Positions 36,197-50,473 are shown, numbered from the stretch's first letter. The stretch: DNA of 64,000 bases from Candidatus Woesearchaeota archaeon (GCA_016935985.1 JAFGPW010000002.1:65991-129990), one strand, 5' to 3'. The notes: generated by a model not told the origin, from the sequence alone. A program made the numbers and translations.

Positions 36197-38101
36197 ATGC
36201 CACAGGTCAGCATCACCTTCCAGGACGGATCACAGAAGAAGTACGACGCAGGGATCACGCTCGGCGAGATCGCGAAGGACCAGGAGGGCCGTTTCGGCAA
36301 GACCATCCTTGCGGCGAGCGTGGATGACCATCTCCAGGACCTCTCCAGGACGGTCGAGAAGGACTCTAGCGTCGTCTTCTTGACCTTCGACACCCACGAG
36401 GGCAGGGACGTCTTCAGGCACAGCACCAGCCACATCCTCGCCCAGGCGGTTCTCCGCATCTGGCCTGACGCGAAGCCCACCATCGGCCCGGCGATCGAGG
36501 ACGGGTTCTACTACGACTTCGACATGCCGCCGGTAGGCCCTGAAGACCTGAAGCGGATCGAGAAGGAGATGAGCCGGGTCGTCCAGGAGAAGATCCCGAT
36601 CGAGCGCAAGGAGGTCTCGAAGGCGGACGCGCTCAGGGAGTTCAAGGGAAACGAGTATAAGATCAGGATGATCAAGGAGCTCGATGAGGGGACCATCACG
36701 ATCTACAAGCAGGGCGACTTCTCCGACCTCTGCAGGGGCCCGCACGTCCCGCACACCGGCTATATCAGGTTCTTCGCCCTGACCAAGGTCGCGGGAGCCT
36801 ACTGGCGCGGCGACGCGAAGAACAAGATGCTCCAGAGGATCTACGGCATCTCGTTCCCCGAGAAGGCGCAGCTCGACGAGTACAAGCGGCTCCAGCAGGA
36901 GGCGAGGCAGCGCGACCACCGCAAGATCGGCCGCGAGCTCGACCTCTTCAGCTTCCAGGAGGAGGGGCCCGGTTTCCCGTTCTGGCACCCCGGCGGCATG
37001 GTGCTGCGCAACCAGATCGAGGCGTTCTACCGCAGGCTCCACCACGACCACGGCTATGTCGAGATCAAGACCCCTATCATCCTCTCCCGAACGCTCTGGG
37101 AGAAGTCGGGCCACTGGGACCACTACCGGGAGAACATGTACTTCACGACGATCGACGGGGCGGACTACGCGGTGAAGCCGATGAACTGTCCCGGCGGCGT
37201 GCTCGTCTTCAAGAGCAGGATACGCTCGTACAAGGAGCTCCCCATGAAGGTCGCCGAGTTCGGGCTCGTGCACCGCCACGAGCTCGCGGGTGTGCTCCAC
37301 GGCCTCTTCCGCGTCAGGGTCTTCACCCAGGACGACGCCCATGTCTACTGCCTGCCCGAGCAGCTGAAGGACGAGATAATCAAGGTGATCGACCTCGTCT
37401 TCGAGCTCTACCACGCCTTCGGGTTCGAGGACTTCGACATCGAGCTCTCGACCAGGCCCGAGAAGTCGATAGGGAGCGACGCGATGTGGGAGAACGCGGA
37501 AGGAGCGCTCCGCGACGCCCTCGAGGAGAAGAGGATACCCTATAAGCTCAACCCCGGCGACGGCGCGTTCTACGGCCCGAAGATCGACTTCCACATCAAG
37601 GACTGCATGCGGCGCAGCTGGCAATGCGGCACCATCCAGGTGGATTTCGCGATGCCGGAGACCCTCGACATCACCTACATGGGCGAGGATGGCACCCAGA
37701 ACCATCGCCCGGTCATGATCCACCGCGCCATCATGGGCTCGATCGAGCGGTTCATCGGGATCCTCCTCGAGCATACGGCAGGCAAATTGCCGATGTGGCT
37801 CAGCCCGGTGCAGGTGAAGATCCTCACGGTCTCGGAGAAGTTCACCGATTATGCGAACGGCGTCGCGGCGAAGATGGATGCGGCTGGCCTGCGCGTGCGC
37901 GTGGACGACCGGAACGAGTCGATCGCGAAGAAGGTGCGCGAGGCTCAGCTCCAGAAGGTCAACTACATCCTCGTGGTCGGCGAGAAGGAGCAGAAGGGCG
38001 GGACGGTGGCCGTCCGCACGCGCGCGAACGAGGTCAGGGGCGAGCAGGAGGTCGCGGACTTCATCAGGGACGCGTGCAAGGAGGCGGATTCGAGGGGGTA
38101 G
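36197..38101 (+). CDS. thrS: threonine--tRNA ligase (bacterial-type, TGS + editing + class II catalytic + anticodon-binding)
   Basis: MPQVSITFQDGSQKKYDAGITLGEIA TGS start; HRDLKP; class II motifs. Confidence 0.9.
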   Translation: MPQVSITFQDGSQKKYDAGITLGEIAKDQEGRFGKTILAASVDDHLQDLSRTVEKDSSVVFLTFDTHEGRDVFRHSTSHILAQAVLRIWPDAKPTIGPAIEDGFYYDFDMPPVGPEDLKRIEKEMSRVVQEKIPIERKEVSKADALREFKGNEYKIRMIKELDEGTITIYKQGDFSDLCRGPHVPHTGYIRFFALTKVAGAYWRGDAKNKMLQRIYGISFPEKAQLDEYKRLQQEARQRDHRKIGRELDLFSFQEEGPGFPFWHPGGMVLRNQIEAFYRRLHHDHGYVEIKTPIILSRTLWEKSGHWDHYRENMYFTTIDGADYAVKPMNCPGGVLVFKSRIRSYKELPMKVAEFGLVHRHELAGVLHGLFRVRVFTQDDAHVYCLPEQLKDEIIKVIDLVFELYHAFGFEDFDIELSTRPEKSIGSDAMWENAEGALRDALEEKRIPYKLNPGDGAFYGPKIDFHIKDCMRRSWQCGTIQVDFAMPETLDITYMGEDGTQNHRPVMIHRAIMGSIERFIGILLEHTAGKLPMWLSPVQVKILTVSEKFTDYANGVAAKMDAAGLRVRVDDRNESIAKKVREAQLQKVNYILVVGEKEQKGGTVAVRTRANEVRGEQEVADFIRDACKEADSRG

Positions 38102-38152
38102 GGGCGGATCCTTGCGAACCGTTAAATTCCTGTTATACGAGGGTGAGGAGCG

Positions 38153-38596
38153 TTAGCGACGAGAAGTTGGCGTAGGGCGGGTTTCATAAAATTTTTTGAG
38201 AATATCGTCTAATTTATTCCAATCTTCACCAACAACAATAGGTTTCAAGGCAATTAGTTCTTCTCTATAACTTACTTGCTGTGGGATGTCATTCAATAAA
38301 AAAATCGGGATTTTTCTATAAAATGCCAGGCCCATTTCCAAAAAAGAATTTCCACCAATATATCCTGCAATTCCATTTTTATCATAATTTGCAACATAAA
38401 CGGCATGAGACGAGTCAATTTTTTGGATATGTTCATTGATTAAATCGTATTGAATTTTTGCTAATGAATCTTCACCTAAGTGGTGGAAATCTTTCATGCT
38501 TGGCAATAGAACCTCGTGTCCTATTTCTTCGAGAGATTTTTTTATATCCCACAGCTTCTCAAAAAATTTTGCACTTGAACATAATGTAATTTTCAT
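38153..38596 (-). CDS. nucleoside 2-deoxyribosyltransferase-like / SLOG-fold protein (tentative)
   Basis: 147 aa; MKITLCSSAKFF ... AVYVANYDKNGIAGYIGGNSFLEMGLA resembles the PF05014/PF15891 pattern. Confidence 0.4.
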   Translation of the reverse strand: MKITLCSSAKFFEKLWDIKKSLEEIGHEVLLPSMKDFHHLGEDSLAKIQYDLINEHIQKIDSSHAVYVANYDKNGIAGYIGGNSFLEMGLAFYRKIPIFLLNDIPQQVSYREELIALKPIVVGEDWNKLDDILKKFYETRPTPTSRR

Positions 38597-38654
38597 AATT
38601 ATATTGGAATAAGTATTAGTTTAAATATTTAACCCGCCCGAAGCCAATTACGCC

Positions 38655-38732
38655 TAACATCGCGATTAAGAGAAGTTCGGCGTAGCCGAATTTGGACGGA
38701 GCCTGCAAGGCGGAGTCTCTTAATCGCTGTTA
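38655..38732 (+). repeat. structured repeat copy 1 (TAACATCG-arm-AAGTT hairpin AATTTGG-CCTGCAAGG-arm'-CGCTGTTA)
   Basis: 78 bp; arms CGATTAAGAGA / TCTCTTAATCG complementary; internal hairpin TTCGGC-GTA-GCCGAA. Confidence 0.8.
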
Positions 38733-38961
38733 TGTGGTGAGCCTGTAAGGCGAACGAGGGAGCATAGCGACCGACAGTATGACGCAGACAAAAGATTTAG
38801 AAAAATTTTCCTATTAATATTCCAGCCACAATAAGTAAAGCTGCGATTATTAACAGAATAATCAATAGTGAAAATTTTTTTCGTTTTCTAAGTAATTCTC
38901 CTAACATATTTTTAGTTTATTGATTAGAATATATAAATCTTTTGTCGAGTAATATTGCACA

Positions 38962-39043
38962 TAACATCGGGATTTACCGAAGTTCGCGAAGCGAATTTGG
39001 ACGAAGAAACCTGCAAGGTTTCGTAGTCGGTAAATCGCTGTTA
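38962..39043 (+). repeat. structured repeat copy 2
   Basis: 82 bp; arms GGATTTACCG / CGGTAAATCG (compensatory relative to copy 1); hairpins TTCGC-GAA-GCGAA and GAAACC-TGCAA-GGTTTC. Confidence 0.8.
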
Positions 39044-39123
39044 GTTGCGTCACAAAGTGACCGAGGGATAGTGCAACGATTTTTCACGAAGTGAAAAAAT
39101 CCCGAAGAGTTGAGAAAAGAAAT

Positions 39124-39381
39124 CTAATGTTGTGTTTTAAAGAAATAAGCACTTGCAATACCAAATCCAATTGTTAAAATCCATAAGATTATTGTAACTG
39201 TGCCAGAGCCACCTAGAGGAGACATTAATGCGGCAAAACCAAGAATAAATGTAATAATTGCTAGCACAATTGCCAATGCTCTATGTCCCATAAAACTCCA
39301 AAATGTCATATTACAATATAGATATTGGATTTGGTTTATAAATTTTTCGTCAAGATTTCTTTTTTCAATTGCAACTAACAT
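39124..39381 (-). CDS. small membrane protein (2-3 TM)
   Basis: 85 aa; island codon usage; sits between repeat copies 2 and 3. Confidence 0.4.
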   Translation of the reverse strand: MLVAIEKRNLDEKFINQIQYLYCNMTFWSFMGHRALAIVLAIITFILGFAALMSPLGGSGTVTIILWILTIGFGIASAYFFKTQH

Positions 39382-39451
39382 CGCGATTAAAAAAAGTTCG
39401 CGAAGCGAATTTGGGAAAATCCTGCAAGGATTTTCTTTTTAATCGCTGTTA
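39376..39451 (+). repeat. structured repeat copy 3
   Basis: 76 bp; arms CGATTAAAAA / TTTTTAATCG; hairpins TTCGC-GAA-GCGAA and AAAATCC-TGCAA-GGATTTT. Confidence 0.8.
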
Positions 39452-39546
39452 TACGCCCCGAACAAAATCTTTGATTTTGTGAGAGCCTGCAAGGCGTGGT
39501 CGAGGAGTTTTGAAAAAACTCCGAAGAAGTCGTAAGAGATGCCGTC

Positions 39547-40029
39547 CTATTTGATTAATGAACCCATAACATCTTGGAAAAAAACACTTTCTCCTCTATA
39601 AAGAATTCTCTCTTGTCCTTTGAAATAACTATAATCGCCTTCCATTTCAAAGGTGTATCTAAAATCTCCATCAGAGAATTCTTTAGGTCCTCGAAAAGGC
39701 ACACTATCATCAAAATTCATTAGAGCTTTTTTTAGAAATGGAAATGCTTGTTCTTGGAAAAAAGCGTCATCGAATTTTGGATTATGTTGTCCTTGATATG
39801 CCATGCACCAAATAGGATTTCCTTGGAAGAAAACAACTTCTCTTCCTGGTGCCCATTGGCTTCCTGCATAAGAATCGTGATATCTTAAATCTCCTTCTAC
39901 AAATTCATAATCTTTATGACCTTCTTGAGTGGGCACCTCACACCTATGTTGTTTTCTGACTTCTTTTGGTGCGGCATAAGTATGTCTGTGTGCCTTTGCG
40001 ATAAAATCTAAAAGTGTTTTTTTCTCCAT
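39547..40029 (-). CDS. hypothetical aromatic-rich protein (possibly DUF5680-like)
   Basis: 160 aa. Confidence 0.4.
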   Translation of the reverse strand: MEKKTLLDFIAKAHRHTYAAPKEVRKQHRCEVPTQEGHKDYEFVEGDLRYHDSYAGSQWAPGREVVFFQGNPIWCMAYQGQHNPKFDDAFFQEQAFPFLKKALMNFDDSVPFRGPKEFSDGDFRYTFEMEGDYSYFKGQERILYRGESVFFQDVMGSLIK

Positions 40030-40094
40030 AAATTTAGTAAAATTGGTGAATTAATAAAGCTTTCTTTCGTGTAGGCATCTCTTACGATTGCGTA

Positions 40095-40240
40095 TAACAT
40101 CGCGATTTAAAGAAGTTCAATTCTGACCTCGAGACTCGCCTTGCAGAGGCTCGAGCTGGAAGAATTGAATTTGGGTAAATTTCGGGAAATCGCTTGGCGA
40201 TTTAGCGTAAGCGACCGAAATTTCCTTTAAATCGCTGTTA
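40095..40240 (+). repeat. structured repeat copy 4 (expanded, 146 bp)
   Basis: Arms CGATTTAAAG / CTTTAAATCG; hairpin stem changed to TTCAATTC ... GAATTGAA; extra internal insert. Confidence 0.75.
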
Positions 40241-40385
40241 TATTCTTTGACCCTACGAGTGAAACGGAGTGGGGTCAAATTTCGTCCGAAAAGTCACGAG
40301 AACGCCGTCTTCAAGGGCGAAGCCCTATCTAACATTAACTTAAAGGGAAAGGAAACTTAAATATTGTTTTTTCTATAGAGTAGTA

Positions 40386-40880
40386 ATGTGCGAAAGATTT
40401 AAATATCTTATATTTATTCTATTCTGTATGGACAACATAAATGATAGATGTTATCAAAGTGATTTATCAACATCAGGATTTGATCAAGCAGATGCATTAG
40501 CAATTAATTTTCTAATGGCACAAGGACTGTTTCTAAGAGGTAGGGGTTATACTCCTGCTGAAACAGGTATATATTTAGACGGAAAAAGATTTATTATTGC
40601 AAGAATGGTTGGAAAATCATCACATTTTGGAGCAGGGGGACAATCGCTTGGACTTCCCGATGAAAGAACTGCAAATCCTGAAGATTATGCCGCATTTCTG
40701 GAAATGCTGATGGGCGGAGATGTTAATAAAGCAACTGTTATTACTTCTAGTAAGGATGTAACAGACCAATTACTAAAAGCAGAAGGTTTAACATCCATTA
40801 TTGGTAAACCAGATGGTGCGGTTCCATACATTGAAGCAAAATATTCTGGAAAACAAATTGACATTATTACTGGTCGTTAG
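40386..40880 (+). CDS. hypothetical protein
   Basis: 164 aa, island codon usage. Confidence 0.4.
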   Translation: MCERFKYLIFILFCMDNINDRCYQSDLSTSGFDQADALAINFLMAQGLFLRGRGYTPAETGIYLDGKRFIIARMVGKSSHFGAGGQSLGLPDERTANPEDYAAFLEMLMGGDVNKATVITSSKDVTDQLLKAEGLTSIIGKPDGAVPYIEAKYSGKQIDIITGR

Positions 40881-40924
40881 TTTCCTTTCCCTTTCTAGAA
40901 ATTGGGCGTTCTCGTGATTGAATA

Positions 40925-41009
40925 TAACATCGGGCTTAAGGGAAGTTTTTTGCGTAGCAAAAAATTTGGGAGAGCGAAGTGCAACGAGCGAACCCTTTAA
41001 GCCCTGTTA
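40925..41009 (+). repeat. structured repeat copy 5
   Basis: Arms GGCTTAAGGG / CCCTTTAAGCC; hairpin TTTTTTGC-GTA-GCAAAAAA. Confidence 0.75.
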
Positions 41010-41145
41010 AATCCGCCGACGAACGAAGTGAGGAGAGTGCAACGTGCCCGAGCGGAATGAAATGGAGCGAAGGAGTCGCCAGCAGTATATTTTGTTTTTA
41101 GGGGGTCAGCGCAAATTTTTTGCTTCTTTTTTTGAAAAAAGAAGA

Positions 41146-41733
41146 TTATTGATTTTCCATAATTTCTTGTATGTCCAAATCTAAGTGTCTAAGCAATCTA
41201 GATTCAGAAACTTTTTCTAATCCTCTTTTGATAAGTTCTTGTGCTTCAGAATATTGTTTTCTATAAATATGATGGATTGCCCCCATATAATACGGGCGAT
41301 CCAAATCAGGATTAAGATTTATTGCTTCTTCCAAACTAGATTCTGCACCTTGAAAGTCTCCTAATTTAAACTGAACAGATGAATAATTAGTAAGAACCAT
41401 AGGTCTTCCTGCCCAATCTTCAGGTGCTTCTTCTAAACAGCACCTAAAAAAATAATTCGCTCCTGCAGGTTCGTTTGCTTCAAGGGTCATAGATCCCAAA
41501 TAAAAATTTGCCCAAAAATCATCAACATGATTAATATGGGATTTGATGAAACATCCATATGCTTCAGGATACATCCCTCTCTGAAGAAATATAGCTCCAG
41601 TACCAGTTAAACGAGTAATTCTATCGGCATAAGTTTTTGGATTACTCTCATCAAGATATTCATTTTTCATTTGAACACTCGCTACAAGATGCTTTGCCAA
41701 TATGTCTGTAAGCTTATCTTTTCCCATAATCAA
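41146..41733 (-). CDS. TPR-repeat protein
   Basis: 195 aa; several 34-aa helical repeats (W/LG/Y/A/F/A/P pattern). Confidence 0.55.
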   Translation of the reverse strand: MIMGKDKLTDILAKHLVASVQMKNEYLDESNPKTYADRITRLTGTGAIFLQRGMYPEAYGCFIKSHINHVDDFWANFYLGSMTLEANEPAGANYFFRCCLEEAPEDWAGRPMVLTNYSSVQFKLGDFQGAESSLEEAINLNPDLDRPYYMGAIHHIYRKQYSEAQELIKRGLEKVSESRLLRHLDLDIQEIMENQ

Positions 41734-41814
41734 ATGGTAACGGTTGTTACTATATAAGTATTACTCCCCCCCAATTAGGGAAAAATATATAAATATATAG
41801 GATATTCCATATAT

Positions 41815-42552
41815 ATGATAAAGGAATCGTTAGAAAAAATAGGCTTAACATCCGGAGAAGCTGAAGTATATGAAGCACTGGTTAGCTTAGGCTTATCATC
41901 TACTGGTGCAATTACAAAAAAAGCAGGAATTGCCAGTTCTAAAGTATATGAGGTTCTTCAGAGATTACAAAAAAAAGGTCTTGTTAGTTTTGTGATAAAA
42001 AATGGAGTACAATATTATGATGCAACACCTCCTGAACGATTGCTTGATTTTCTTGAAGAAAAAAAAGAAGATGTAGTAAGGGCTCAAGAAGACATCAAGA
42101 AAATTATTCCTACAATAAAGCAACTTGGAGAGAAAGCAGACGAACATAATGAAACAGTAGTTTATACAGGTATTGAAGGTGCAAAGATTGTTCTTAAGGA
42201 GATATTAGAAGCAGGAAAGAAAGGAATATCTAATTATGGATTCGGGACAAATGTTGATCCTTATGTGGAACAATTGCCTCATGCTCTTAATAATTATATT
42301 CAAGAGGCAAAAAAACTAAAGTTTAAAACAAGATTAATTTTTGCTAAAGGATTCAAATCTTCAAATATAACAGCAGAAATTAGATTTCTCTCAACGGAAT
42401 ATTTACCTCCTGTTAGAACAATGATTTATGGACATAAAGTTGCGATAGTTGATTTCACAAAGCCAGTTACAACAATTATTATTCATAAAAGAGAAATTGC
42501 GGAATCATATAAAAAACACTTTGAACAATTATGGAAAATCGCAAAAAAATAA
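41815..42552 (+). CDS. TrmB family transcriptional regulator
   Basis: N-terminal HTH LTSGEAEVYEALVSLGLSSTGAITKKAGIASSKVYEVLQRLQKKGLV; 245 aa. Confidence 0.8.
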   Translation: MIKESLEKIGLTSGEAEVYEALVSLGLSSTGAITKKAGIASSKVYEVLQRLQKKGLVSFVIKNGVQYYDATPPERLLDFLEEKKEDVVRAQEDIKKIIPTIKQLGEKADEHNETVVYTGIEGAKIVLKEILEAGKKGISNYGFGTNVDPYVEQLPHALNNYIQEAKKLKFKTRLIFAKGFKSSNITAEIRFLSTEYLPPVRTMIYGHKVAIVDFTKPVTTIIIHKREIAESYKKHFEQLWKIAKK

Positions 42553-42639
42553 ATCTCTGAAACGAAGTTTCAGACTATCTGTTTTCTGAAAGAAAACCGC
42601 GCTGACCCCCTTTCTATAAATAATGCTGGTGATTGGATT

Positions 42640-42749
42640 TAACATCGGGCTTAAGGGAAGTTTTTTCCGCAGGAAAAAATTTGGGAGAGAAACGAATTTT
42701 GCTTGGCAAAATAGCGAAGCGGTCGTTTCGAACCCTTTAAGCCCTGTTA
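42640..42749 (+). repeat. structured repeat copy 6
   Basis: Same arms as copy 5; hairpin TTTTTTCC-GCA-GGAAAAAA (compensatory GC to CC/GG change relative to copy 5). Confidence 0.75.
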
Positions 42750-42815
42750 AATACGTTTTCCGTTACGAGCGAAGCGGAGTTCGGAAAACCTGCGTCCGCA
42801 GAGTAAAATTTCCAT

Positions 42816-42862
42816 TTAAAAATAAATTCGACCACAGGGAGTGTATATGTGCGAAGCACTGG
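42816..42862 (+). repeat. direct repeat DR-A (TTAAAAATAAATT-N15-TATATGTGCGAAGCACTGG)
   Basis: 37/47 identical to DR-B at 49492-49537. Followed by three GGGGAGTTCC 10-mers at 42861, 42916, 42967 and a ~55 bp degenerate tandem repeat x3. Confidence 0.7.
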
Positions 42863-43038
42863 GGAGTTCCGTTCCTTAGAAAGAGCGAATGCGACACATC
42901 AAGAACAAGTATCTAGGGGAGTTCTTTTTTCATCAAAGCCGAAGGCTCATCAAGTAAAAACATCTAGGGGGAGTTCCGTTCAATACAAGCGAACAAAGTG
43001 AGCCATCAAGAACAAGGTTATAGGGGCGAGAAAACCAA

Positions 43039-43073
43039 AACATTTATTAACATTTGATAACATTTGTGATAAT
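43039..43073 (+). promoter_or_regulatory. three 10-bp-phased iterons AACATTT(A/G)NN upstream of the RHH gene (candidate operator)
   Basis: AACATTTATT AACATTTGAT AACATTTGTG, 12-45 nt upstream of the ATG. Confidence 0.4.
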
Positions 43074-43084
43074 AGGGGGTAGCT

Positions 43085-43222
43085 ATGAAACCAAAAAACG
43101 TTACACTACACTTAAATTCAGATTTGTACGAGAAATATAAAGAATTTTGCAAGAGAAAAGGCTGGCTTGTATCTAGACAAGTTGAGCTTATGATGGAAAA
43201 GCAGATGAAGGGAGACATATAA
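43085..43222 (+). CDS. ribbon-helix-helix (CopG/Arc-like) small DNA-binding protein, 45 aa
   Basis: Not in the track. MKPKNVTLHLNSDLYEKYKEFCKRKGWLVSRQVELMMEKQM is a beta-strand then helix-helix pattern. Stops 1 nt before the next gene. Confidence 0.5.
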   Translation: MKPKNVTLHLNSDLYEKYKEFCKRKGWLVSRQVELMMEKQMKGDI

Positions 43223-43223
43223 A

Positions 43224-43961
43224 ATGGTATCATTCAAACTTGCAGCTATAAAAATTCTGAGAGAAGCAAAAGAACCTTTGCACTATGAAGAGATCACTAA
43301 AAGGGCATTAGAGAATAACATGATTGAGACTTCTGGAGCTACACCTGAATCAACCATGAATGCTCAGATTGCTGTTGACATTAAATCAAAGAAAGGAGAA
43401 TCTCCTTTTGTACGGGTTAAACCTGGTTATTTCGGACTAAATCCTAATTTTACTGAAAAGGAAGAGAAAGAAGAAGAAAAAGAAGAAGAAGTAAAAGAAG
43501 CAGAAATTCAAGAGAATATAAGCACACAATACGTAGGTAAAGCAGGAGAGCATCGGGTTGTCAGTGAGTTATTATTCAGAGGATTTAATGCAAGTATTAT
43601 GGGTGTTGATGAAGGGATTGATATTGTTGCTACAAAAGAAAGAAGTCTCTATAATATACAAGTAAAAACCTCAAACGAGAACAAATTCAATTATTATGTT
43701 TTTGATTTGCGTATAAGCAGTTTTGAGAAATATAATAGAAATAATACTTTCTATGTATTTGTTCTTAAAGGAGAAAAGGTTAATTTTCTCATATTACCTT
43801 ACTTTGAAATTCAGAAAAATGTTGATCAAAAAAATATTCTTGTTGTAAATAAAAGTACACGATATCGAATTAACATTAGGATACGTGATGGAAAATTGTA
43901 TTTAGGAAATAAGGAGAATGAAATGTCATACTTTATGAATAATTGGGAGTTAGTTAAATGA
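43224..43961 (+). CDS. HARE-HTH + PD-(D/E)xK (Mrr-like) restriction endonuclease-like protein
   Basis: N-terminal AAIKILREAKEPLHYEEITKRALENNMIETSGATPESTMNAQIAVDIK (HARE-HTH). C-terminal EHRVVSELLF ... GVDEGIDIVATKE ... IQVKTS nuclease core. Confidence 0.6.
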   Translation: MVSFKLAAIKILREAKEPLHYEEITKRALENNMIETSGATPESTMNAQIAVDIKSKKGESPFVRVKPGYFGLNPNFTEKEEKEEEKEEEVKEAEIQENISTQYVGKAGEHRVVSELLFRGFNASIMGVDEGIDIVATKERSLYNIQVKTSNENKFNYYVFDLRISSFEKYNRNNTFYVFVLKGEKVNFLILPYFEIQKNVDQKNILVVNKSTRYRINIRIRDGKLYLGNKENEMSYFMNNWELVK

Positions 43962-44605
43962 ATCAGACAAAATCAAGGCAAAGAGTTATTGATCATGGAG
44001 AAGTCTTTACCCATGAAAGAGAAGTAAATGGAATGCTTGATCTTGTTAAAAATGAAACTGAAAGATTAGATTCTCGATTTTTAGAGCCTGCGTGTGGAAC
44101 GGGTAATTTCTTAATTGAAGTATTGAACAGAAAACTCATGGTTCTTAAGAAAAAATATAGTCGTAGTCAACCAGAATATGAAAAATATGGTATAGTTGTT
44201 GTTTCAAGCTTATATGGTATTGATTTACTTGAAGACAACGTACAGGAATGTAGGCAAAGATTAATTGACACATTGGAAAAAGAATATACCTCTATTTTCA
44301 AACATAAATTTAATCAAAAGTATGTAGAAGTTTTAAGGTTCATCTTAAGCAAGAATATTGTCTCAGGAGATGCGCTGACAATGAAAAATACTAAAGGAAA
44401 GCCACTCATTTTTTCTGAATGGTCAATGCCTTATAATGATTCTAAAATTAAAAGGAAAGAATATTCATTTAAGGATATATTTAGCCCCACTCTTTTATGG
44501 AGTTTTACTACTGATAGCGATACAGGAGAAAGAGTAATATTACCCAACGTATATAAGGATCATCCCCTCATGAACTATATGGAGTTAGTAAACAAAAATG
44601 GATGA
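43958..44605 (+). CDS. truncated gamma-class N6-adenine MTase paralog (motif X + canonical motif I, no NPPY)
   Basis: GEVFTHEREVNGMLDLV ... LEPACGTGNFLIEVL; 215 aa. Confidence 0.55.
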   Translation: MNQTKSRQRVIDHGEVFTHEREVNGMLDLVKNETERLDSRFLEPACGTGNFLIEVLNRKLMVLKKKYSRSQPEYEKYGIVVVSSLYGIDLLEDNVQECRQRLIDTLEKEYTSIFKHKFNQKYVEVLRFILSKNIVSGDALTMKNTKGKPLIFSEWSMPYNDSKIKRKEYSFKDIFSPTLLWSFTTDSDTGERVILPNVYKDHPLMNYMELVNKNG

Positions 44606-45068
44606 AGAATTTGACATAGAAGGTGTAATTTATCCGGTGCCTTACGATTTAGCTATGAATATTTTTAAAAAAAATAAAAAAATTTTTGTTAAATATTTGA
44701 CACACGAGCCTACAAAAAAAACAGTAGTTCGTCTTAAGAAAGGGATGAAGTTGTATATCTATTCTTCACAATCCAAAAAGGTTATTCTCGGTGAAGGAGT
44801 TATTGATGAAATATCTTTTTTGAACAGATCAGAAATCTTATCAAAATTTGATGACGAGCTATTCATTTCGGAGTCAGAGTTAAGGGACTACTCGAAGGGG
44901 AGAGAAAGTAAGAAGGCCCAAGTGTTAAAAATTAAGAATATTGTTCTGTATCCCAAAGGGAAGATTGTTAAAAGAGCAATAACTATGACCGGTATATATG
45001 TAACTGGACAAAATAAAAAAAGCATTTTTGGGAATCAGAAAAACATCAATGGAGTTAACAAAAAATGA
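44598..45068 (+). CDS. PUA/ASCH-like beta-barrel domain protein (tentative)
   Basis: 156 aa; MKLYIYSSQSKKVILGEGVIDEISFL; embedded in the RM operon with 8-nt and 4-nt overlaps. Confidence 0.35.
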   Translation: MDEEFDIEGVIYPVPYDLAMNIFKKNKKIFVKYLTHEPTKKTVVRLKKGMKLYIYSSQSKKVILGEGVIDEISFLNRSEILSKFDDELFISESELRDYSKGRESKKAQVLKIKNIVLYPKGKIVKRAITMTGIYVTGQNKKSIFGNQKNINGVNKK

Positions 45069-46621
45069 ATAAAACGGATTACAATCCAGATATATTAAGT
45101 TGTCTAGCAAGTTTAAGCAACGATGAAGTATTTACACCTCCTAAAATAGTTAATGAAATGCTAGATTTGTTACCTCCCGAATTATGGAAAGATAAGAATG
45201 CAAGATTTTTAGATCCTGTGTCTAAAACAGGGATTTATCTGAGAGAGATAGCAAAGAGACTAATGAAAGGTTTGGAAAAACAGATTCCCAATAGGCAAAA
45301 AAGGGTAAATCATATCCTTACCAATCAACTTTATGGGGTAGCAATAACAGAGTTAACATCCTATGTCTCTAGGAGATCATTGTATTGTTCAAAAACTGCT
45401 AATGGAAACTACTCTGTTTCTACAGAGTTCAAGAATAAAGAAGGGAATATAAGATTCAAAAATATTAATCACGAGTGGGTAAATGGAGGCTGCATATTTT
45501 GCGGTGCAAGTAAGGAAGTTTATGATCGTGGAGACGAAATGGAGTCACACGCTTATGAGTTTATCCATACAGAAAAACCGGAGGAGATATTCAAAATGAA
45601 ATTCGATGTAATTTTAGGAAATCCACCTTATCAGTTAAGTGATGAGGGTCACGGAAGAAGTGCTAGACCTGTTTATCATAAGTTTGTTCAACAAGCGAAA
45701 AAACTAAACCCTCGGTTTTTGACAATGATCATACCTGCACGCTGGTATGCAGGAGGAAAGGGACTTGATGAATTCAGGTCAGAGATGTTGAATGATAAAC
45801 GAATTCGCAACCTTGTCGATTTTGAAAATTCACGTGATGTTTTTCCTGGTGTTGATGTGGCAGGAGGAATATGTTATTTTTTATGGGATAGAGATAATAA
45901 AGGATCATGTGAGATAAAGAGTTTATACAACGGAGCAGAGGTAAAATCTGTAAGAGCTTTGGACGAATTTTCAATTTTTGTAAGACAAGGTCAAGCAATA
46001 CCAATTATTAGAAAAATAGAAGCAGTAAAAGAAAATAATGGAAAACGACTGAGTGATGTTGTATCCTCAAGAAAACCATTTGGATTACCAACAAATTATG
46101 AACCCAAAGAGAAAGGAGTGCCTTGCTGGTTTATTCAGAGGGTAGGATTGAAATATGCTGATAAACGAGATATAATGGATCCTAATAAATTATTAAACAA
46201 ATGGAAATTTCTAGTACCCAAAGCACCTATCGCTGGTCAGACTGATTTTTCTAAACCTGTAGGATTTTATTATGATGGAAATACTAAAATTGCAAAACCA
46301 GGTGAATGTTGTACTGAATCATTTATCGTTGCTGGAGCATTTAATACAGAGGAAGAAGTAATTTCTTTCAAATCTTATTTATTTACCAAAATTGTGAGGT
46401 TCTTAATACTTCAGACAGTTATTTCGCAAGATGTAACGAAAAATAACTTTTCTTTCGTACCTGATTTAGGTAAATATAAAGGAAAATACACTGACGAATT
46501 ATTGAGGAAACGTTGGAATATAACTGATAGTGAATGGAACTATATTGATTCAAGAATAAGATCAGTTGATTCTATAAATAATAAAAATCACTATGAGGAA
46601 ATCCCTGATGACGATGAATAA
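45065..46621 (+). CDS. gamma-class N6-adenine DNA methyltransferase with C-terminal target-recognition region (Eco57I/TaqI-like M)
   Basis: Motif X DEVFTPPKIVNEMLDLL, degenerate motif I LDPVSKTGIYL, motif IV ILGNPPYQ, Cys-containing insert (GGCIFCG), ~330-aa C-terminal TRD. Confidence 0.8.
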   Translation: MNKTDYNPDILSCLASLSNDEVFTPPKIVNEMLDLLPPELWKDKNARFLDPVSKTGIYLREIAKRLMKGLEKQIPNRQKRVNHILTNQLYGVAITELTSYVSRRSLYCSKTANGNYSVSTEFKNKEGNIRFKNINHEWVNGGCIFCGASKEVYDRGDEMESHAYEFIHTEKPEEIFKMKFDVILGNPPYQLSDEGHGRSARPVYHKFVQQAKKLNPRFLTMIIPARWYAGGKGLDEFRSEMLNDKRIRNLVDFENSRDVFPGVDVAGGICYFLWDRDNKGSCEIKSLYNGAEVKSVRALDEFSIFVRQGQAIPIIRKIEAVKENNGKRLSDVVSSRKPFGLPTNYEPKEKGVPCWFIQRVGLKYADKRDIMDPNKLLNKWKFLVPKAPIAGQTDFSKPVGFYYDGNTKIAKPGECCTESFIVAGAFNTEEEVISFKSYLFTKIVRFLILQTVISQDVTKNNFSFVPDLGKYKGKYTDELLRKRWNITDSEWNYIDSRIRSVDSINNKNHYEEIPDDDE

Positions 46622-49133
46622 AAACTTTTTTCCGAAGAAGCCTGATGTAAGTCCACTTATTTATGCTTATGAACTTGAAGGTGTTGAAACGCATAAAGGA
46701 CTATTAAAAGTAGGATATACTACGCGGACATCTAAAGATAGGGTAAAGGAGCAATTAAAAACTAGTCGTGTAAAGTATAAAATAGTATTTGAAGAATCTG
46801 CCATGAGAAAAGACGGCACTTATTTTGATGATCACGCAGTCCATAAACTTTTGCTCAAGAAAGGAATTAAGCGAAAAAGTGGAGAATGGTTTGCTTGTTC
46901 TATTAAGGAAGTAAAAGCTGTCGTTTTAGCCTTGAAAACAGGAATAATAAATGAAGATAATAGGACATTGAATTTCAAAATGAGGCCTGAACAAGCTGAG
47001 GCAGTAAAAAGAGCGTCTCATTATTTTTCTAGTTTTAAAGAAGAGAAAAAAACACCTCATTTCCTTTGGAATTGTAAGATGAGATTTGGTAAAACTTTTG
47101 CGGCTTATCAATTAGCAAAAAAAATGGGATGGAAAAGGATTCTTGTGCTAACATTTAAACCTGCGGTTGAAAGTGCTTGGGAAGATGACTTATTAAATCA
47201 TGTTGATTTTGAGGGATGGCAATTTTATTCTAGACATTCAGATATAAATTCAAGCAAATTGAAAAAAAAGAAACCTATAGTTTGTTTTGGTTCTTTTCAG
47301 GATTATTTAGGTAAAGATTCTCTTGGTAGGATTAAGACAAAAAATGAATGGGTTCATAAAATTAAATGGGATTGTATTATCTTTGATGAGTATCATTTTG
47401 GTGCGTGGAGGGAATCAGCAAAAAGCCTATTTGACGAGGAAAATGAGATTCTTGTTGAGCAGAAAGAATATGAAGAAGAGATGGTTCAAGGTCCTGAAGA
47501 GCAAGATAAAATTGATTATTTAGAAAGTGCGATGCCTATAAAGACAAGATTATATCTTTATTTATCTGGGACTCCATTTAGAGCAATAATTTCAGGAGAA
47601 TTTATAGAAGAACAAATTTATCATTGGACTTATTCCGATGAGCAAAGAGCCAAAGAAAATTGGAAAAAAGCTAAGAATCCTTATGAGTCTTTACCTAGGA
47701 TAGTATTGCTAACCTATCAATTACCAGATTCAATAATAAACATTGCGAGCGGAGGAGAATTTGATACTTTTGATCTAAATGTCTTTTTTTCTGCTAAAGG
47801 TGAAGGCAAAGATGCAAAATTTGTATATGAAGACGATGTCCAAAAATGGCTTGATTTGATTCGAGGCAACTATTTAGCGTCAAATTTGGATAATTTAAAA
47901 CTGGGTGCTAAAAAACCCCCTCTTCCTTATTCCGATGTTAGATTATTGAATATATTATCTCACACACTTTGGTTTTTGCCGCATGTTAATTCATGCCATG
48001 CTATGGATAATTTATTGATGCAGAAGCAAAATAAATACTATCACTATTACAATATTGTAGTCGCAGCAGGTGCAACAGCAGGAATAGGACTAGATGCTCT
48101 CAAACCTGTACAAAAGGCAATGGAAGAGCCATTAAAAAGTAAATCGATTACCTTAACATGTGGAAAACTAACTACTGGAGTTACTGTAAGACCTTGGGCA
48201 GGTATTTTCATGCTTAGAAATCTAAAAAGCCCAGAAACATATTTTCAAGCAGCATTTAGAGTTCAATCCCCTTGGACTGTAAAAAATCCAGATGGAAAAA
48301 CTCCTAACTCTGAAGAAATCATAAAGAGAGAATGTTACATTTTTGACTTTGCTCCAAATAGAGCATTAAAACAGATTGCAGACTACAGTTGTAATCTTGA
48401 TATTGATGAAACAGATTCTGAGAAGAAAATTAAGGAGTTTATTGATTTTCTGCCCGTGTTAGCTTTCGATGGAAGTCGTATGGAAGTATTAGATGCTGGT
48501 AAAATTATTGAAATGGCAATGAGCGGAACTACTGCTTCACTTTTGGCAAGACGGTGGGAAAGTGCTCTACTCGTTAATGTTGATAACCACACTTTAAGTA
48601 AAATTCTGAATAATCCAAAAGCCCTAGAAGCTCTAATGAGTATTGAAGGTTTTAGAAGTTTGAATAGTGATATTGAGCTTATTATAAACAAGTCAGAATC
48701 GGTCAAAAAGACTAAGCAAAAATTAGCAAATGAAGAAGATATTCCACCTAAGCTAAAGAAAAAACTGACTGAAGAAGAAAAGGAATATATGAGTAAAAGG
48801 AAGGAGATTCAGAAGAAATTAATCAAATTTGCAACAAGGATACCTATTTTTATGTATTTAACAGATTACAGGGAAAGAACATTGAAAGATATAATAACAA
48901 AATTAGAACCTGGTTTGTTCAAAAAAGTTACAGGATTAAAGGTTGAAGATTTTGAGTTATTAGTAAGCCTAGGAGTATTCAATAGTAATTTGATGAATGA
49001 TGCAGTATTCAAGTTCAAGAGATATGAAGAAGCAAGTTTGTCGTACACAGGAATATATAAACATAAAGTCGAACAAGTGGGGGGATATGACATAGTTGTG
49101 ACTGCTGAAGAATTCACTGAAAAGGTAAAATGA
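46608..49133 (+). CDS. T5orf172 (GIY-YIG superfamily) nuclease - SF2 (ResIII-like, DExH) helicase fusion; restriction/effector subunit
   Basis: N-terminus LIYAYELEGVETHKGLLKVGYTTRTSKDRVKEQ ... GEWF. Helicase motifs FGKTFAAYQ (I), CIIFDEYHFG (II), LSGTPF (III), QAAFRVQSPW (VI). Start at an internal Met (ATGA overlap with the MTase). Confidence 0.8.
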   Translation: MTMNKNFFPKKPDVSPLIYAYELEGVETHKGLLKVGYTTRTSKDRVKEQLKTSRVKYKIVFEESAMRKDGTYFDDHAVHKLLLKKGIKRKSGEWFACSIKEVKAVVLALKTGIINEDNRTLNFKMRPEQAEAVKRASHYFSSFKEEKKTPHFLWNCKMRFGKTFAAYQLAKKMGWKRILVLTFKPAVESAWEDDLLNHVDFEGWQFYSRHSDINSSKLKKKKPIVCFGSFQDYLGKDSLGRIKTKNEWVHKIKWDCIIFDEYHFGAWRESAKSLFDEENEILVEQKEYEEEMVQGPEEQDKIDYLESAMPIKTRLYLYLSGTPFRAIISGEFIEEQIYHWTYSDEQRAKENWKKAKNPYESLPRIVLLTYQLPDSIINIASGGEFDTFDLNVFFSAKGEGKDAKFVYEDDVQKWLDLIRGNYLASNLDNLKLGAKKPPLPYSDVRLLNILSHTLWFLPHVNSCHAMDNLLMQKQNKYYHYYNIVVAAGATAGIGLDALKPVQKAMEEPLKSKSITLTCGKLTTGVTVRPWAGIFMLRNLKSPETYFQAAFRVQSPWTVKNPDGKTPNSEEIIKRECYIFDFAPNRALKQIADYSCNLDIDETDSEKKIKEFIDFLPVLAFDGSRMEVLDAGKIIEMAMSGTTASLLARRWESALLVNVDNHTLSKILNNPKALEALMSIEGFRSLNSDIELIINKSESVKKTKQKLANEEDIPPKLKKKLTEEEKEYMSKRKEIQKKLIKFATRIPIFMYLTDYRERTLKDIITKLEPGLFKKVTGLKVEDFELLVSLGVFNSNLMNDAVFKFKRYEEASLSYTGIYKHKVEQVGGYDIVVTAEEFTEKVK

Positions 49134-49384
49134 TTGGCAAGCTTCTTGATCCTAAGGCTATAATCGGAACTATCTCGTTTGTTTTTATCATGGTTGTTCT
49201 TTTTATGATGCTTGACGGAATACAAGATAGTCCTTTAGCTGAGAACGAACAGGCAAATAAGACTATTCAAGAAACGAAAGAATCTTTATCTATCTTGACT
49301 AATGGTTATTTTCTTGCTGGAAGCATAGCAAGTGCAATAGCATTGATAGGCTTCTTCATCTGGTTATATCATAGATACAGTTAG
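49130..49384 (+). CDS. small membrane protein (2 TM), last gene of the RM-like operon
   Basis: 84 aa; start overlaps the helicase stop (ATGA). Confidence 0.5.
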   Translation: MIGKLLDPKAIIGTISFVFIMVVLFMMLDGIQDSPLAENEQANKTIQETKESLSILTNGYFLAGSIASAIALIGFFIWLYHRYS

Positions 49385-49491
49385 TTTTCTCGTCCCCTTC
49401 TAAAAAATATGAATTTTCGAGCAACAAAGTTGCGAGCGTAGATGTCCGTCAGGACTAAGGAACTCCCCCCTTAAATTAAAGAACTCCCCTA

Positions 49492-49537
49492 TTAAAAATA
49501 AATTTCTCCGAAGGAGACTATATGTGCGTAGCACTGG
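49492..49537 (+). repeat. direct repeat DR-B (TTAAAAATAAATT-N14-TATATGTGCGTAGCACTGG)
   Basis: Flanked by three GGAACTCCCC 10-mers (49459, 49480, 49536) that are the inverse of those next to DR-A. Confidence 0.7.
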
Positions 49538-49651
49538 AACTCCCCAACTTTACCGTCAAAGAAATGGAAATTTTATTGTATTTAACACGTATTAAGCGTA
49601 CTTTTTCGCGCCGAACAGGGATTTCCGGCGTCTTCACGAAAAGGCGTATAA

Positions 49652-50473
49652 ATGCCCGCTGTCCCCCGTGTCCGGATGGGGTATGAGAGGATTGTGACAG
49701 ACGAGTGCAGGTTCAGGGGCTATTCGCCGAGGACGATAAAGGCATACCTGCATCACGTCAAGAGGTTCGTGGCGTCCGGGATGCCGCCGAGGGAGTACCT
49801 CCTCATGCTCATCGGGAACGGCGCCTCTGACGAGACGGTGAGGTCCGCGGGCTTCGCCGTCAGGTTCTATCTCGCGGCTGCGGGGAAGGGCCGCCCGGAG
49901 GCCGGAACGGTCCTTGCCGCCCTGCCGAACGTCAAGCGCGGGAAGAGGCTTCCGGTGATACTCTCCAAGGAGGAGGTGGGGCGGCTGGTATCGGCCTCCA
50001 GCAACGCCAACCACCGGCTGATCATGCAGGTAGGTTATTCTGCCGGCCTGCGGGTCAGCGAGATAGTGAACCTCCGCTGGCAGGACGTCGATCTCGGCAG
50101 GGACGTGATCCATGTGAAGCGCGCCAAAGGGAAGAAGGACCGGATCGTCATGCTCTCTTCGAAAGTCAAGGAAGGCCTGCTGGGCCTCGCGCCTGGCAGG
50201 GAAGGGCCTGTCTTCCTCACGAACAGGGGCGGAAGGTACTCACCAAGGACGATACAGAAGATCATAGCGGATGCGGCAGCGAAGGCAGGCATACGGAAGA
50301 GGATAACCCCGCACACCCTGCGGCATTCCTTCGCGACGCATCTCCTGGAGAACGGGACAGACCTGCGGCACATCAGGGACCTGCTGGGACATTCTGACCT
50401 GCGCACGACCATGGTCTATACGAACGTGTCGAACAGGACCATCCGCGGCATCAGGAGCCCGCTGGACGACTGA
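49652..50473 (+). CDS. tyrosine site-specific recombinase (XerC/XerD/XerA-like)
   Basis: R..HTLRHSFATHLLENGTDLRHIRDLLGHSDLRTTMVYTNV catalytic box II with Tyr; C-terminal IRSPLD; host-like high GC; no IntI-specific insertion. Confidence 0.85.
   Translation: MPAVPRVRMGYERIVTDECRFRGYSPRTIKAYLHHVKRFVASGMPPREYLLMLIGNGASDETVRSAGFAVRFYLAAAGKGRPEAGTVLAALPNVKRGKRLPVILSKEEVGRLVSASSNANHRLIMQVGYSAGLRVSEIVNLRWQDVDLGRDVIHVKRAKGKKDRIVMLSSKVKEGLLGLAPGREGPVFLTNRGGRYSPRTIQKIIADAAAKAGIRKRITPHTLRHSFATHLLENGTDLRHIRDLLGHSDLRTTMVYTNVSNRTIRGIRSPLDD

Follow-up and report, generated by a model that had tools for sequence, protein, structure and literature searches.

Repeats at the two ends of a restriction-modification module in a Woesearchaeota genome are probably the terminal modules of a cassette in an integron-like array

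Here we describe the two ends of a restriction-modification (RM) module in a 64,000-nucleotide stretch of DNA from Candidatus Woesearchaeota archaeon (GCA_016935985.1, JAFGPW010000002.1:65991-129990); the whole of this stretch is called the window. The module is bracketed by two direct repeats (DRs), DR-A on the left and DR-B on the right, and by inverted arrays of a short motif. We slightly favor a reading in which these are the left and right terminal modules of one cassette of an integron-type array, with ends that extend the stem of the cassette's attC-like recombination site. The identity of the repeats as cassette ends, built on a widespread chassis, is well supported. The mechanism that would make use of them, folding of a single strand, is put forward tentatively, at chances close to even.

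A preliminary description of this DNA had reported DR-A, DR-B, a core and a prefix shared between them, a set of 10-mers, and three tandem units, and all of these are present at the positions given here. The 19-nt core TATATGTGCGWAGCACTGG lies on the + strand at 42844-42862 and 49519-49537. These are its sole matches in the 64 kb with up to 3 mismatches (0.01 expected), and the chance recurrence that had been raised as a possible objection is thus not seen in the window. The 13-nt prefix TTAAAAATAAATT occurs in the window only at 42816 and 49492 (0.02 expected). Exactly six copies of the 9-mer GGGGAGTTC are found in the window against 0.73 expected, a count reached in 0 of 100 shuffles; three are on the + strand (42861, 42916, and 42968) and three on the - strand (49460, 49481, and 49537). 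The stretch of 14-15 nt between prefix and core differs by copy (CGACCACAGGGAGTG versus TCTCCGAAGGAGAC). Hence, the ~47-bp direct repeats of the preliminary description hold for the prefix and the core and fail for the unlike centers, and each "repeat" is better described as two conserved blocks flanking a variable hairpin. Both sides share one variant of the middle 10-mer (GGGGAGTTCT / AGAACTCCCC); the two 10-mer triplets are thus mirror images in register, which bears out the claim that the ends carry oppositely oriented subterminal repeats (3 + 3 in mirror order, with a matching middle variant). Outside the triplets there is an extra 14-nt inverted repeat, which has two copies in the window (0 expected). 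An independent repeat search of the left end recovered the tandem units, with lengths of 55, 52, and 55 nt. Each unit opens with a G-rich motif that we call X (GGGGAGTTCC at 42861, GGGGAGTTCT at 42916, and GGGGAGTTCC at 42968; complement, X'). The features of the two ends and of the recombination sites beside them are as follows.

42640..42752, + strand: attC-like site no. 6, with a TAAC box at 42640-42643 and a GTTAAAT box at 42746-52
42755..42801, + strand: two local hairpins, hp1 (GTTTTCCG...CGGAAAAC) and hp2 (CTGC-GTCC-GCAG), both in the fold prediction
42804..42817, + strand: left arm of the 14-nt terminal inverted repeat, TAAAATTTCCATTT, by motif search
42816..42862, + strand: DR-A module, consisting of an AT-box (42816-28), the variable hairpin hp3 (42829-43), the core with TATATG and a GCGAAGC mini-hairpin (hp4, 42849-59), and TGG
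42861..43030, + strand: three tandem ~52-55-nt units and a degenerate fourth G-run at 43023, by repeat search
49438..49458, + strand: conserved right-end block GTAGATGTCCGTCAGGACTAA with the hairpin GTCC-GTCA-GGAC, conserved in six right ends
49459..49489, + strand: X'3 GGAACTCCCC (49459-68) and X'2 AGAACTCCCC (49480-89), reverse complements of X3 and X2
49492..49537, + strand: DR-B module, consisting of an AT-box (49492-504), hp3 TCTCC-GAA-GGAGA (49505-17), and the core with a GCGTAGC mini-hairpin (49519-37)
49536..49545, + strand: X'1 GGAACTCCCC, complement of X1, by motif search
49562..49575, + strand: right arm of the 14-nt terminal inverted repeat, AAATGGAAATTTTA, complement of the left arm, by motif search
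49578..49586, + strand: terminal box GTATTTAAC, the right end of the cassette, with the crossover region at ~49586-49588
49587..49601, + strand: attI-like site ACG-TATTAAGCGTAC, a conserved motif
49676..50473, + strand: XerA-like tyrosine recombinase, 265 aa; the ATG at 49676 agrees with the public gene call

The RM module lies in an island of 32-40% GC (38.1-49.6 kb) within a window that is otherwise 60-67% GC and belongs to a host chromosome encoding an archaeal-type phosphoenolpyruvate carboxylase and Dph6. The island starts 15 nt past the stop codon of the threonyl-tRNA synthetase (ThrRS) gene and ends ~90 nt before the tyrosine recombinase gene. It holds an array (38116-49601) that runs from a short att site (GAACCGTTAAATTCCTGTTATAC, 38116-38138) just past ThrRS to the attI-like site by the recombinase. 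Six long attC-like sites (~38655-38735, 38962-39046, 39376-39454, 40095-40243, 40925-41012, and 42640-42752) and one short site, all of the same polarity, split the island into seven cassettes, of which the RM module is the seventh, adjoining the recombinase and attI. The sites have the form yTAACATCGsGaTT...GAAGTT(hairpin)AATTTGG(hairpin)...AATCGCTGTTAnnn and are imperfect palindromes ending in ...AAC / GTT..., with AAC and GTT invariant in 7/7. The full RYYYAAC...GTTRRRY consensus is present in GCCTAAC, ATTTAAC, and GTTAAAT; the other sites are one position off. Paired L-type arms are present. A scan of 37.5-51 kb against Rfam (E ≤ 1) gave no match. All array cassettes are 32-40% GC, with end sequences near-identical to those of low-GC DPANN genomes. 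Such sequences would imply cassette flow between lineages of very different base composition.

The recombinase scored best against the archaeal XerA model (XerA_Arch), and P. abyssi XerA aligned with it end to end. The integron integrase model TIGR02249 matched it in two stretches, below the cut-off. In an alignment with VchIntIA (2a3v), query residues 165-190 stand opposite residues 174-244 of the chain, and ~45 residues are missing at the IntI-specific domain. A start at 49652 in the open reading frame (ORF) list is probably wrong, as a TATA-like GTATAAAT overlaps this position and the public call starts at 49676. Homologues of the recombinase number more than 7900. Among the first 120 listed, identity is 58-69%, and a source is named for only a few, as Woesearchaeota, Nanoarchaeia, or "archaeon". 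An exact-protein search with the 273-aa version of the ORF found no record, and the 265-aa version was found only on a Logan contig that starts at attI.

The limits of the RM cassette can be read from homologous loci (given here as L numbers). On the right, six ends are identical up to GTATTTAACA (49588) and then diverge: the other loci run into an attC arm (ATCGG...), and the window runs into ACGTATTAAGCGTAC, the conserved attI-like motif. On the left, attC no. 6 and the adjoining end show 87% identity with L024 and 83% with L023 across ~380-396 bp. This similarity spans the attC to the left of DR-A, indicating that the attC travels with the left end, and attC no. 6 probably belongs to the RM cassette. 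By these comparisons of sequence, the cassette extends from ~42640 to 49586, with the attC-type boxes as its limits and the direct repeats internal to it. The motif TAAC-N3-TATTAA(A/G)C is kept 60-120 nt upstream of the recombinase gene in five sets of homologous loci (the window, L014, L040/41, L042-44, and L045/46), and in L014 a DR-flanked cassette is again the first by attI. If the integron rule applies, the attI-proximal RM cassette would be the most recent acquisition of the array. Five of the nine public contigs fetched (L001, L041, L043, L044, and L045) start at the attI motif or close to it, 100-270 nt ahead of the recombinase gene, which suggests population-level variation of the first cassette. 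The Logan contig of the recombinase gene of the window starts at window position 49559, a start that fits branching of a 31-mer graph at 49588/49589. An excised RM cassette would be expected to have the circular junction ...GTATTTAA / CATCGGGCTTAAGGG and to leave the empty site GGATCCTTGCGAA / CACGTATTAAGCG. A scan of metagenome contigs for the host-side attI of the window (as an empty site or with another first cassette) gave 0 matches, and we found no circular junction and no empty site. In L040 (2480-10000), the cassette adjoining attI is a type I RM system (HsdR/S/M and a 47-aa ORF) in the opposite gene orientation; it has the inverted ends GGGGGGAATTCC and AATTTCAGGGGC without a DR module, and the right end of the preceding cassette bears two tandem DR modules.

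We scanned for exact matches to the core, with one genome per species, and obtained 38 stretches. Three of these (L021, L022, and L039) are chance matches in high-GC bacterial coding sequence and were excluded. The remaining 35 of 38 matches lie in low-GC contigs: Woesearchaeota or Nanoarchaeota metagenome-assembled genomes (MAGs), Methanosarcinales-binned MAGs, and an Atribacteria-labelled MAG (L009). The search of other genomes that had been proposed, for the core beside different cargo, thus shows the core to be common and always in the same structural context. A lack of conserved flanks in homologous islands, which had also been raised as an objection, was not observed: the flanks are conserved over more than 150 nt in related loci, and several small hairpins within them vary by compensatory substitutions, such as the stem of hp2 (CTGCG/CGCAG, TTGCG/CGCAA, and TTTCG/CGAAA). 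Most core matches are DR-A-like; L008 and L015 are DR-B-like, including the two upstream copies of GGAACTCCCC, and in the 149-nt right end L015 and the window are identical at 145/147 positions. Compared with the window, these loci have left ends (278 nt) of 84-92% identity and right ends (149 nt) of 89-99% identity, but unrelated cargo proteins. A chassis of attC and ends is common to arrays with different neighbors.

A counterpart of the RM cassette is split over L019 and L008; a 1313-aa ORF that spans their join shows these to be neighboring parts of a single Nanoarchaeota contig. The combined unit reads DR-A, three forward X, a ribbon-helix-helix (RHH) gene, the 1313-aa gene, two reverse X, DR-B, and one reverse X, and it is bounded by short att sites. 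The same pattern is found in L017, L023, and L024, with module lengths of 3.6-5.1 kb, and tandem units like those of the RM left end occur in L019, L017, L023, and L024. A version with one X copy per end is found in L012, L013, L014, L018, and L028, and the architecture with other cargo is also listed for L009 and L015.

The makeup of the module itself is conserved in structure. We counted modules and covariation by a script (AT[ACT]TG followed by a perfect hairpin, with a hairpin also before it), since a MAFFT alignment misaligns hp3. There are 58 modules in the 35 loci, and in 34 of the 35 loci they lie on one strand only. Each consists of an AT-box, a covarying C-GNA-G triloop hairpin (hp3), TATATG, and a GCGNAGC mini-hairpin (hp4). 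Pairing of hp3 is kept across 41 distinct sequences, with GAA, GTA, GCA, or AAA loops. In hp4, GTGC-GWA-GCAC accounts for 48 cases and the rest are GTCC/GGAC, GTTAC/GTAAC, or GTTTTCT/AGAAAAC, always complementary. The strand that carries the modules is the strand with the TAACATCG attC arm (33 versus 5) and with the inner GAAGT...AATTTGG motif (30 versus 1). The sole locus with DR modules on both strands is L028, in which two right ends stand tail to tail around half an att site (~4768-4950); this arrangement suggests an inversion or irregular recombination event.

Every module sits 5' of X at a left end or of its complement X' at a right end. X and X' are complementary over at least 9 nt in 11 of 12 left-right module pairs, although several different X sequences are involved, for example GGGGAGTTCC / GGAACTCCCC, GGGGGTCTGAG / CTCAGACCCCC (L009), and GGGGCGTCA / TGACGCCCC (L015). 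In the sixth cassette of the window, X is GGGGGTCAGCGC (41101) and X' is GCGCTGACCCCC (42599), and its right end has a diverged DR module at ~42556-42597. The inverted ends of other cassettes differ again (39529 GTCGTAAGAGATGCC / 40074 GGCATCTCTTACGA and 40342 AAAGGGAAAGGAAACT / 40879 AGTTTCCTTTCCCTTT). When each of the seven left ends of the array was compared with the reverse complement of each right end (7 × 7), the cognate pair was the best in every row and column, with scores of 27-32 versus 14-25. The inverted 10-mers and the 14-mer are therefore the RM cassette's own terminal inverted repeats, as in all seven cassettes.

We noted that the motif does not follow the protein encoded next to it. 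The RHH proteins of the window (KNVTLHLNS) and of L015 (KNVTLHLKS) have almost the same beta-strand but go with GGGGAGTTCC and GGGGCGTC, respectively, whereas the unrelated protein of L019 (IKVSVSMER) shares the X of the window. Because the motif varies per cassette without a matching encoded protein and is nevertheless always complemented, base pairing, or an origin in a single long palindrome, appears to be the best account of X/X', and a protein-binding site a poor one. A site-specific inversion between X and X' was also considered and ruled out, since X differs in every cassette.

Several features single out one strand. In the non-coding part of the window array (38100-43085), there are 12 C-GNA-G triloop hairpins on the + strand and none on the - strand (0.125 in shuffles), and in 34 DR-oriented loci the counts are 138 versus 7. 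The AAGTT/AATTT stem of attC has a conserved G-T wobble on the + strand that would be an A-C mismatch on the opposite strand. The hp4 sequences are exactly GCGAAGC or GCGTAGC, a DNA mini-hairpin motif, and hp3 of DR-B contains CCGAAGG. GCGNAGC DNA mini-hairpins melt at 70-76 C and are known in signals on single-stranded DNA (ssDNA), such as the G4 origin and RSF1010 ssiA (PMC13037366, PMC3201870). RNA counterparts are considerably less stable, with a melting temperature of 39 C for the related r(GCGAAAGC) (PMC13037366, PMC3201870). The polarity of the modules tracks that of attC and not the direction of the genes: 7/7 genes in L017 and most genes in L023 are antisense to the DRs. This independence argues against a role as promoter or terminator of the cargo, which we ruled out on the grounds of these two loci, and for a strand-specific role at the DNA level. 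By analogy, with attI beside the recombinase, we infer that the + strand corresponds to the bottom, or folding, strand of integrons.

When the RM right end, attC no. 6, and the RM left end were joined, the predicted DNA fold had an energy of -98.9 kcal/mol, compared with -68.2 kcal/mol for the present array junction, -61 to -71 kcal/mol for non-cognate ends, and -60.5 ± 2.7 kcal/mol for a shuffled right end. In the minimum-energy fold of the joined ends, X1 pairs with X'1, X2 with X'2, and X3 with X'3; the 14-mers and the terminal boxes pair as well, and hp1-hp4 stay local.

We suggest that the + strand would fold, as in integron recombination, and that the XerA-like recombinase would excise the cassette and re-insert it at the TAAC/GTTA boxes. 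In the excised circle, X' and X would flank attC and lengthen its stem by more than 50 bp, favoring extrusion of a hairpin or cruciform. Within the array, each attC has non-matching ends on its two sides and the extension of the stem would be absent. DR-A and DR-B each lie 5' of one arm of the first inverted pair and would be related by a two-fold axis in a stem made of one strand, which would account for one element being direct while all others are inverted. The DRs could then act as two-fold-symmetric accessory hairpins, suited to a dimeric reader (the recombinase or a host protein), and the invariant core might serve as an accessory recombinase site or as a priming signal.

A number of points weigh against this proposal. 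The scan was seeded with the exact core, and the sample is therefore biased to this chassis family. The DR module is not on all cassettes, the L040 RM cassette having inverted ends and no DR, and X' often precedes runs of five to seven T (T5-7) that are terminator-like. The near-invariance of the 19-nt core points to sequence-specific recognition outside this model. Excision, circles, and folding are in silico predictions. Each end alone folds no better than shuffles (z -0.3 to -0.8), so the case for the hairpins is made by covariation and loop bias rather than energy, and we no longer argue from how stable a single end is. Joined ends fold almost equally well on the - strand (-92.5 versus -96.1), so energy alone does not pick the strand. 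Moreover, the 2-nt bulge of the attC-like stems is in the half opposite to that of the canonical attC extrahelical bases. Given this position of the bulge and a recombinase that lacks the bulge-reading IntI insertion, the analogy with integrons may fail.

Other explanations account for part of these observations. The preliminary description had read the repeats as attL/attR cores, or as multi-site transposon ends, of an element separately inserted in or beside the array, a reading that we find hardly credible even though direct repeats bracket the module, the subterminal repeats are opposed, and a tyrosine recombinase adjoins. The centers of the repeats differ, as they should not in attL/attR cores or a target duplication, and the same modules stand at the ends of many other cassettes, namely those with unrelated cargo in 35 other loci, with one or two to a cassette and no case of an empty site. 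Conservation with other cassettes extends beyond the DRs to the att boxes, which the ends abut. We found no transposase in any ORF of the module (Pfam, NCBIfam, and PADLOC), no target duplication, and no viral contig with the core (0 matches in a scan of viral contigs). The RM unit is a member of the array, all seven cassettes of which have like inverted ends. From the sequences, then, we take the structure to be neither an attL/attR pair nor a transposon. The RM module remains a mobile unit in the sense of being discrete, exchangeable, and tied to the adjoining tyrosine recombinase; what falls away is its insertion as a foreign element. Also unlikely, if less so, is that the modules punctuate transcription on the + strand, as terminators or insulators that block read-through or as a promoter in which the AT-box serves a leaderless TATATG start; in the window, they might then feed transcription toward the recombinase gene. 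The AT-box is ~15 nt upstream of TATATG, a typical archaeal TATA-to-start spacing, DR-B is ~140 nt upstream of the recombinase start, TATA-like boxes occur 25-30 nt upstream of ATG in other array cassettes, and T5-7 runs follow the C-rich X' in nine right ends (L009, L011, L012, L013, L014, L017, L018, L023, and L028, but not the window, L015, or L008). Nevertheless, orientation tracks attC and not the genes, all seven of which are antisense in L017, as are most in L023, and cargo genes have TATA-like boxes of their own nearer their starts. A covarying hairpin would be unexpected between a TATA box and a start site, C-G-closed GNA triloops are a signature of DNA stability, and the long-range, cassette-specific complementarity of X and X' would be left unexplained. 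Upstream of the recombinase in L040-L046, there is no DR-B. Small ORFs can be read from the ATG in the core (MCEALGSSVP; 54 aa at 49522), but we rejected them as coding: they have only five residues in common, and beyond these their sequence depends on X versus X'.

It is quite unlikely that the 10-mers are double-stranded iterons, i.e., operators or centromere-like sites for the RHH or another protein, with the GTGC-N3-GCAC of the core as a second operator, such that the RM operon would be regulated or silenced from both ends, for example by looping. Three direct copies upstream of the RHH gene and three inverted copies at the other end would suit such a role, as would the spacing of ~52-55 bp, near five helical turns, and an RHH or winged helix-turn-helix gene is often the first after the left end. 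However, RHH type and X do not covary (compare the window, L015, and L019), so that the preliminary description's suggestion of the RHH protein as reader of the 10-mer became improbable and was ruled out as a candidate. Cassettes without a DNA-binding gene (window cassettes 0-4 and L017) keep their own X/X', the RHH promoter of the window has separate 10-bp repeats, and the strand bias of the loops is unexplained by iterons. A slightly slimmer chance falls to initiation on ssDNA, in which the mini-hairpins of the DRs would be ssi/sso-like priming sites on a single-stranded excised or transferred cassette and the inverted repeats would be incidental. GCGNAGC and CCGAAGG are found within established signals for priming on ssDNA (phage G4 origin and RSF1010 ssiA), hp3 of DR-B has CCGAAGG and hp4 is GCGTAGC or GCGAAGC, and the strict polarity on a single strand fits. 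On the other hand, the cassettes have no linked gene for a primase or for replication, many cassettes are without the module, and such priming does not explain why a cassette should have the module twice, placed each time exactly 5' of X or X'.

Integrons of archaea are known from published work, as are attC clusters without an integrase (CALINs); MAGs of Woesearchaeales and Methanosarcinales are listed as having such clusters but no IntI (Ghaly et al. 2022, PMC9668308). The array resembles integrons in that a tyrosine recombinase stands beside an attI-like site and cassettes are parted by imperfect ...AAC / GTT... palindromes, the sites being alike within the array and the cargo variable, with defence genes included. 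Unlike those of integrons, its recombinase is XerA-like and without the ~45-aa IntI-specific insertion, the stem bulge is in the opposite half of the site, and the cassettes are multi-gene with their own promoters. Each cassette has terminal inverted repeats beyond the core boxes, and many have strand-specific DR mini-hairpin modules; to our knowledge, neither feature is part of any integron description. Because the IntI domain is missing and the 2-nt bulge lies in the other half of the strand that carries the folding signals, we regard the system as integron-like rather than as a member of the integrons. Subterminal hairpins on the same strand at both ends recall IS200/IS605 and REP/RAYT elements, where they imply a strand-specific single-stranded substrate, but here the ends abut tyrosine-recombinase att boxes and there are long inverted repeats too; no HUH (Y1) transposase was found in the RM cassette or the other cassettes examined. 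Several copies of a short motif, in mirror image at the two ends, also recall Tn7 and Mu, but a transposase and a target duplication are lacking here, and the motif changes per cassette without a matching encoded protein.

An Xer/dif-type site is a double-stranded site of ~28 bp with a 6-8-bp central region. Integrative mobile elements exploiting Xer (IMEXs) share with the array an Xer-family recombinase and a tandem arrangement of elements at one chromosomal site. They differ in that most sites here have hairpin-forming inserts of 60-130 nt and not a fixed 6-8-bp spacer, and in that the array lies directly upstream of the recombinase gene; short att sites with 7-11-nt centers occur in L008, L017, and L019. 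DNA mini-hairpin signals (G4 origin, RSF1010 ssiA, and phage N4 promoters; PMC13037366) share the exact GCGAAGC/GCGTAGC of hp4 and the CCGAAGG of DR-B hp3, but here the hairpins are embedded in the flanks of recombination sites and no replication function is linked to them.

It is possible, if doubtful, that these arrays are a DPANN analogue of integrons in which a XerA-type recombinase without the IntI domain acts on self-matching ssDNA folds of the cassette around attC. If so, they would define a structure-specific recombination site of a new class and might represent a separate or ancestral path to gene capture of the integron type. A short attC would then not suffice for capturing cassettes in these archaea; each cassette would also bring long self-complementary, strand-specific DNA. 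This would bear on the origin of integrons from Xer-type recombinases, on ssDNA structure, rather than sequence, as what defines a mobile unit, and on the shuffling of defence genes among DPANN archaea (an RM system here and a type I RM system in the same position of a related genome). The 19-nt core and the attI motif are simple probes for such arrays, which standard integron finders score as integrase-less attC clusters. Our search of the open-access literature turned up no account of a XerA-like partner, and none of cassette-specific terminal inverted repeats or the mini-hairpin modules.

Between its two ends, the RM cassette holds the following features.

43040..43069, + strand: three 10-bp direct repeats ACATTTnnnA (ACATTTATTA, ACATTTGATA, and ACATTTGTGA), read from the sequence, upstream of the RHH gene
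43085..43222, + strand: 45-aa small protein read as RHH, by ORF call
43224..49384, + strand: cargo genes, by Pfam and PADLOC

The repeats at 43040-43069 may be the operator and promoter of the RM operon, and they are more likely than the 10-mers to be an RHH operator. The 45-aa RHH-like protein has no family match in Pfam, NCBIfam, or PADLOC; by tblastn, its homologues are the first gene of other cassettes (L015, L010, and L038). The cargo comprises a HARE-HTH/PD-(D/E)XK protein, a 215-aa methyltransferase-like ORF, DUF365, an Eco57I-family methyltransferase (2e-39 in Pfam), a T5orf172+ResIII helicase, and a small membrane protein, plausibly an RM or defence operon. An exact-protein look-up of the methyltransferase found no record. 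One PADLOC model of a type IIG restriction endonuclease-methyltransferase is matched by two proteins encoded within 45065-49133, at its positions 861-1315 by the methyltransferase (518 aa) and at its positions 151-677 by the T5orf172-helicase (846 aa). Since both proteins match parts of the same model, the pair looks like a split form of a single-polypeptide helicase-methylase RM enzyme. The 215-aa ORF (43958-44605) precedes the complete Eco57I-family methyltransferase. Its matches to N6-adenine methyltransferase models are confined to their N-terminal region, and it may be either a fragment or one subunit of a split enzyme.

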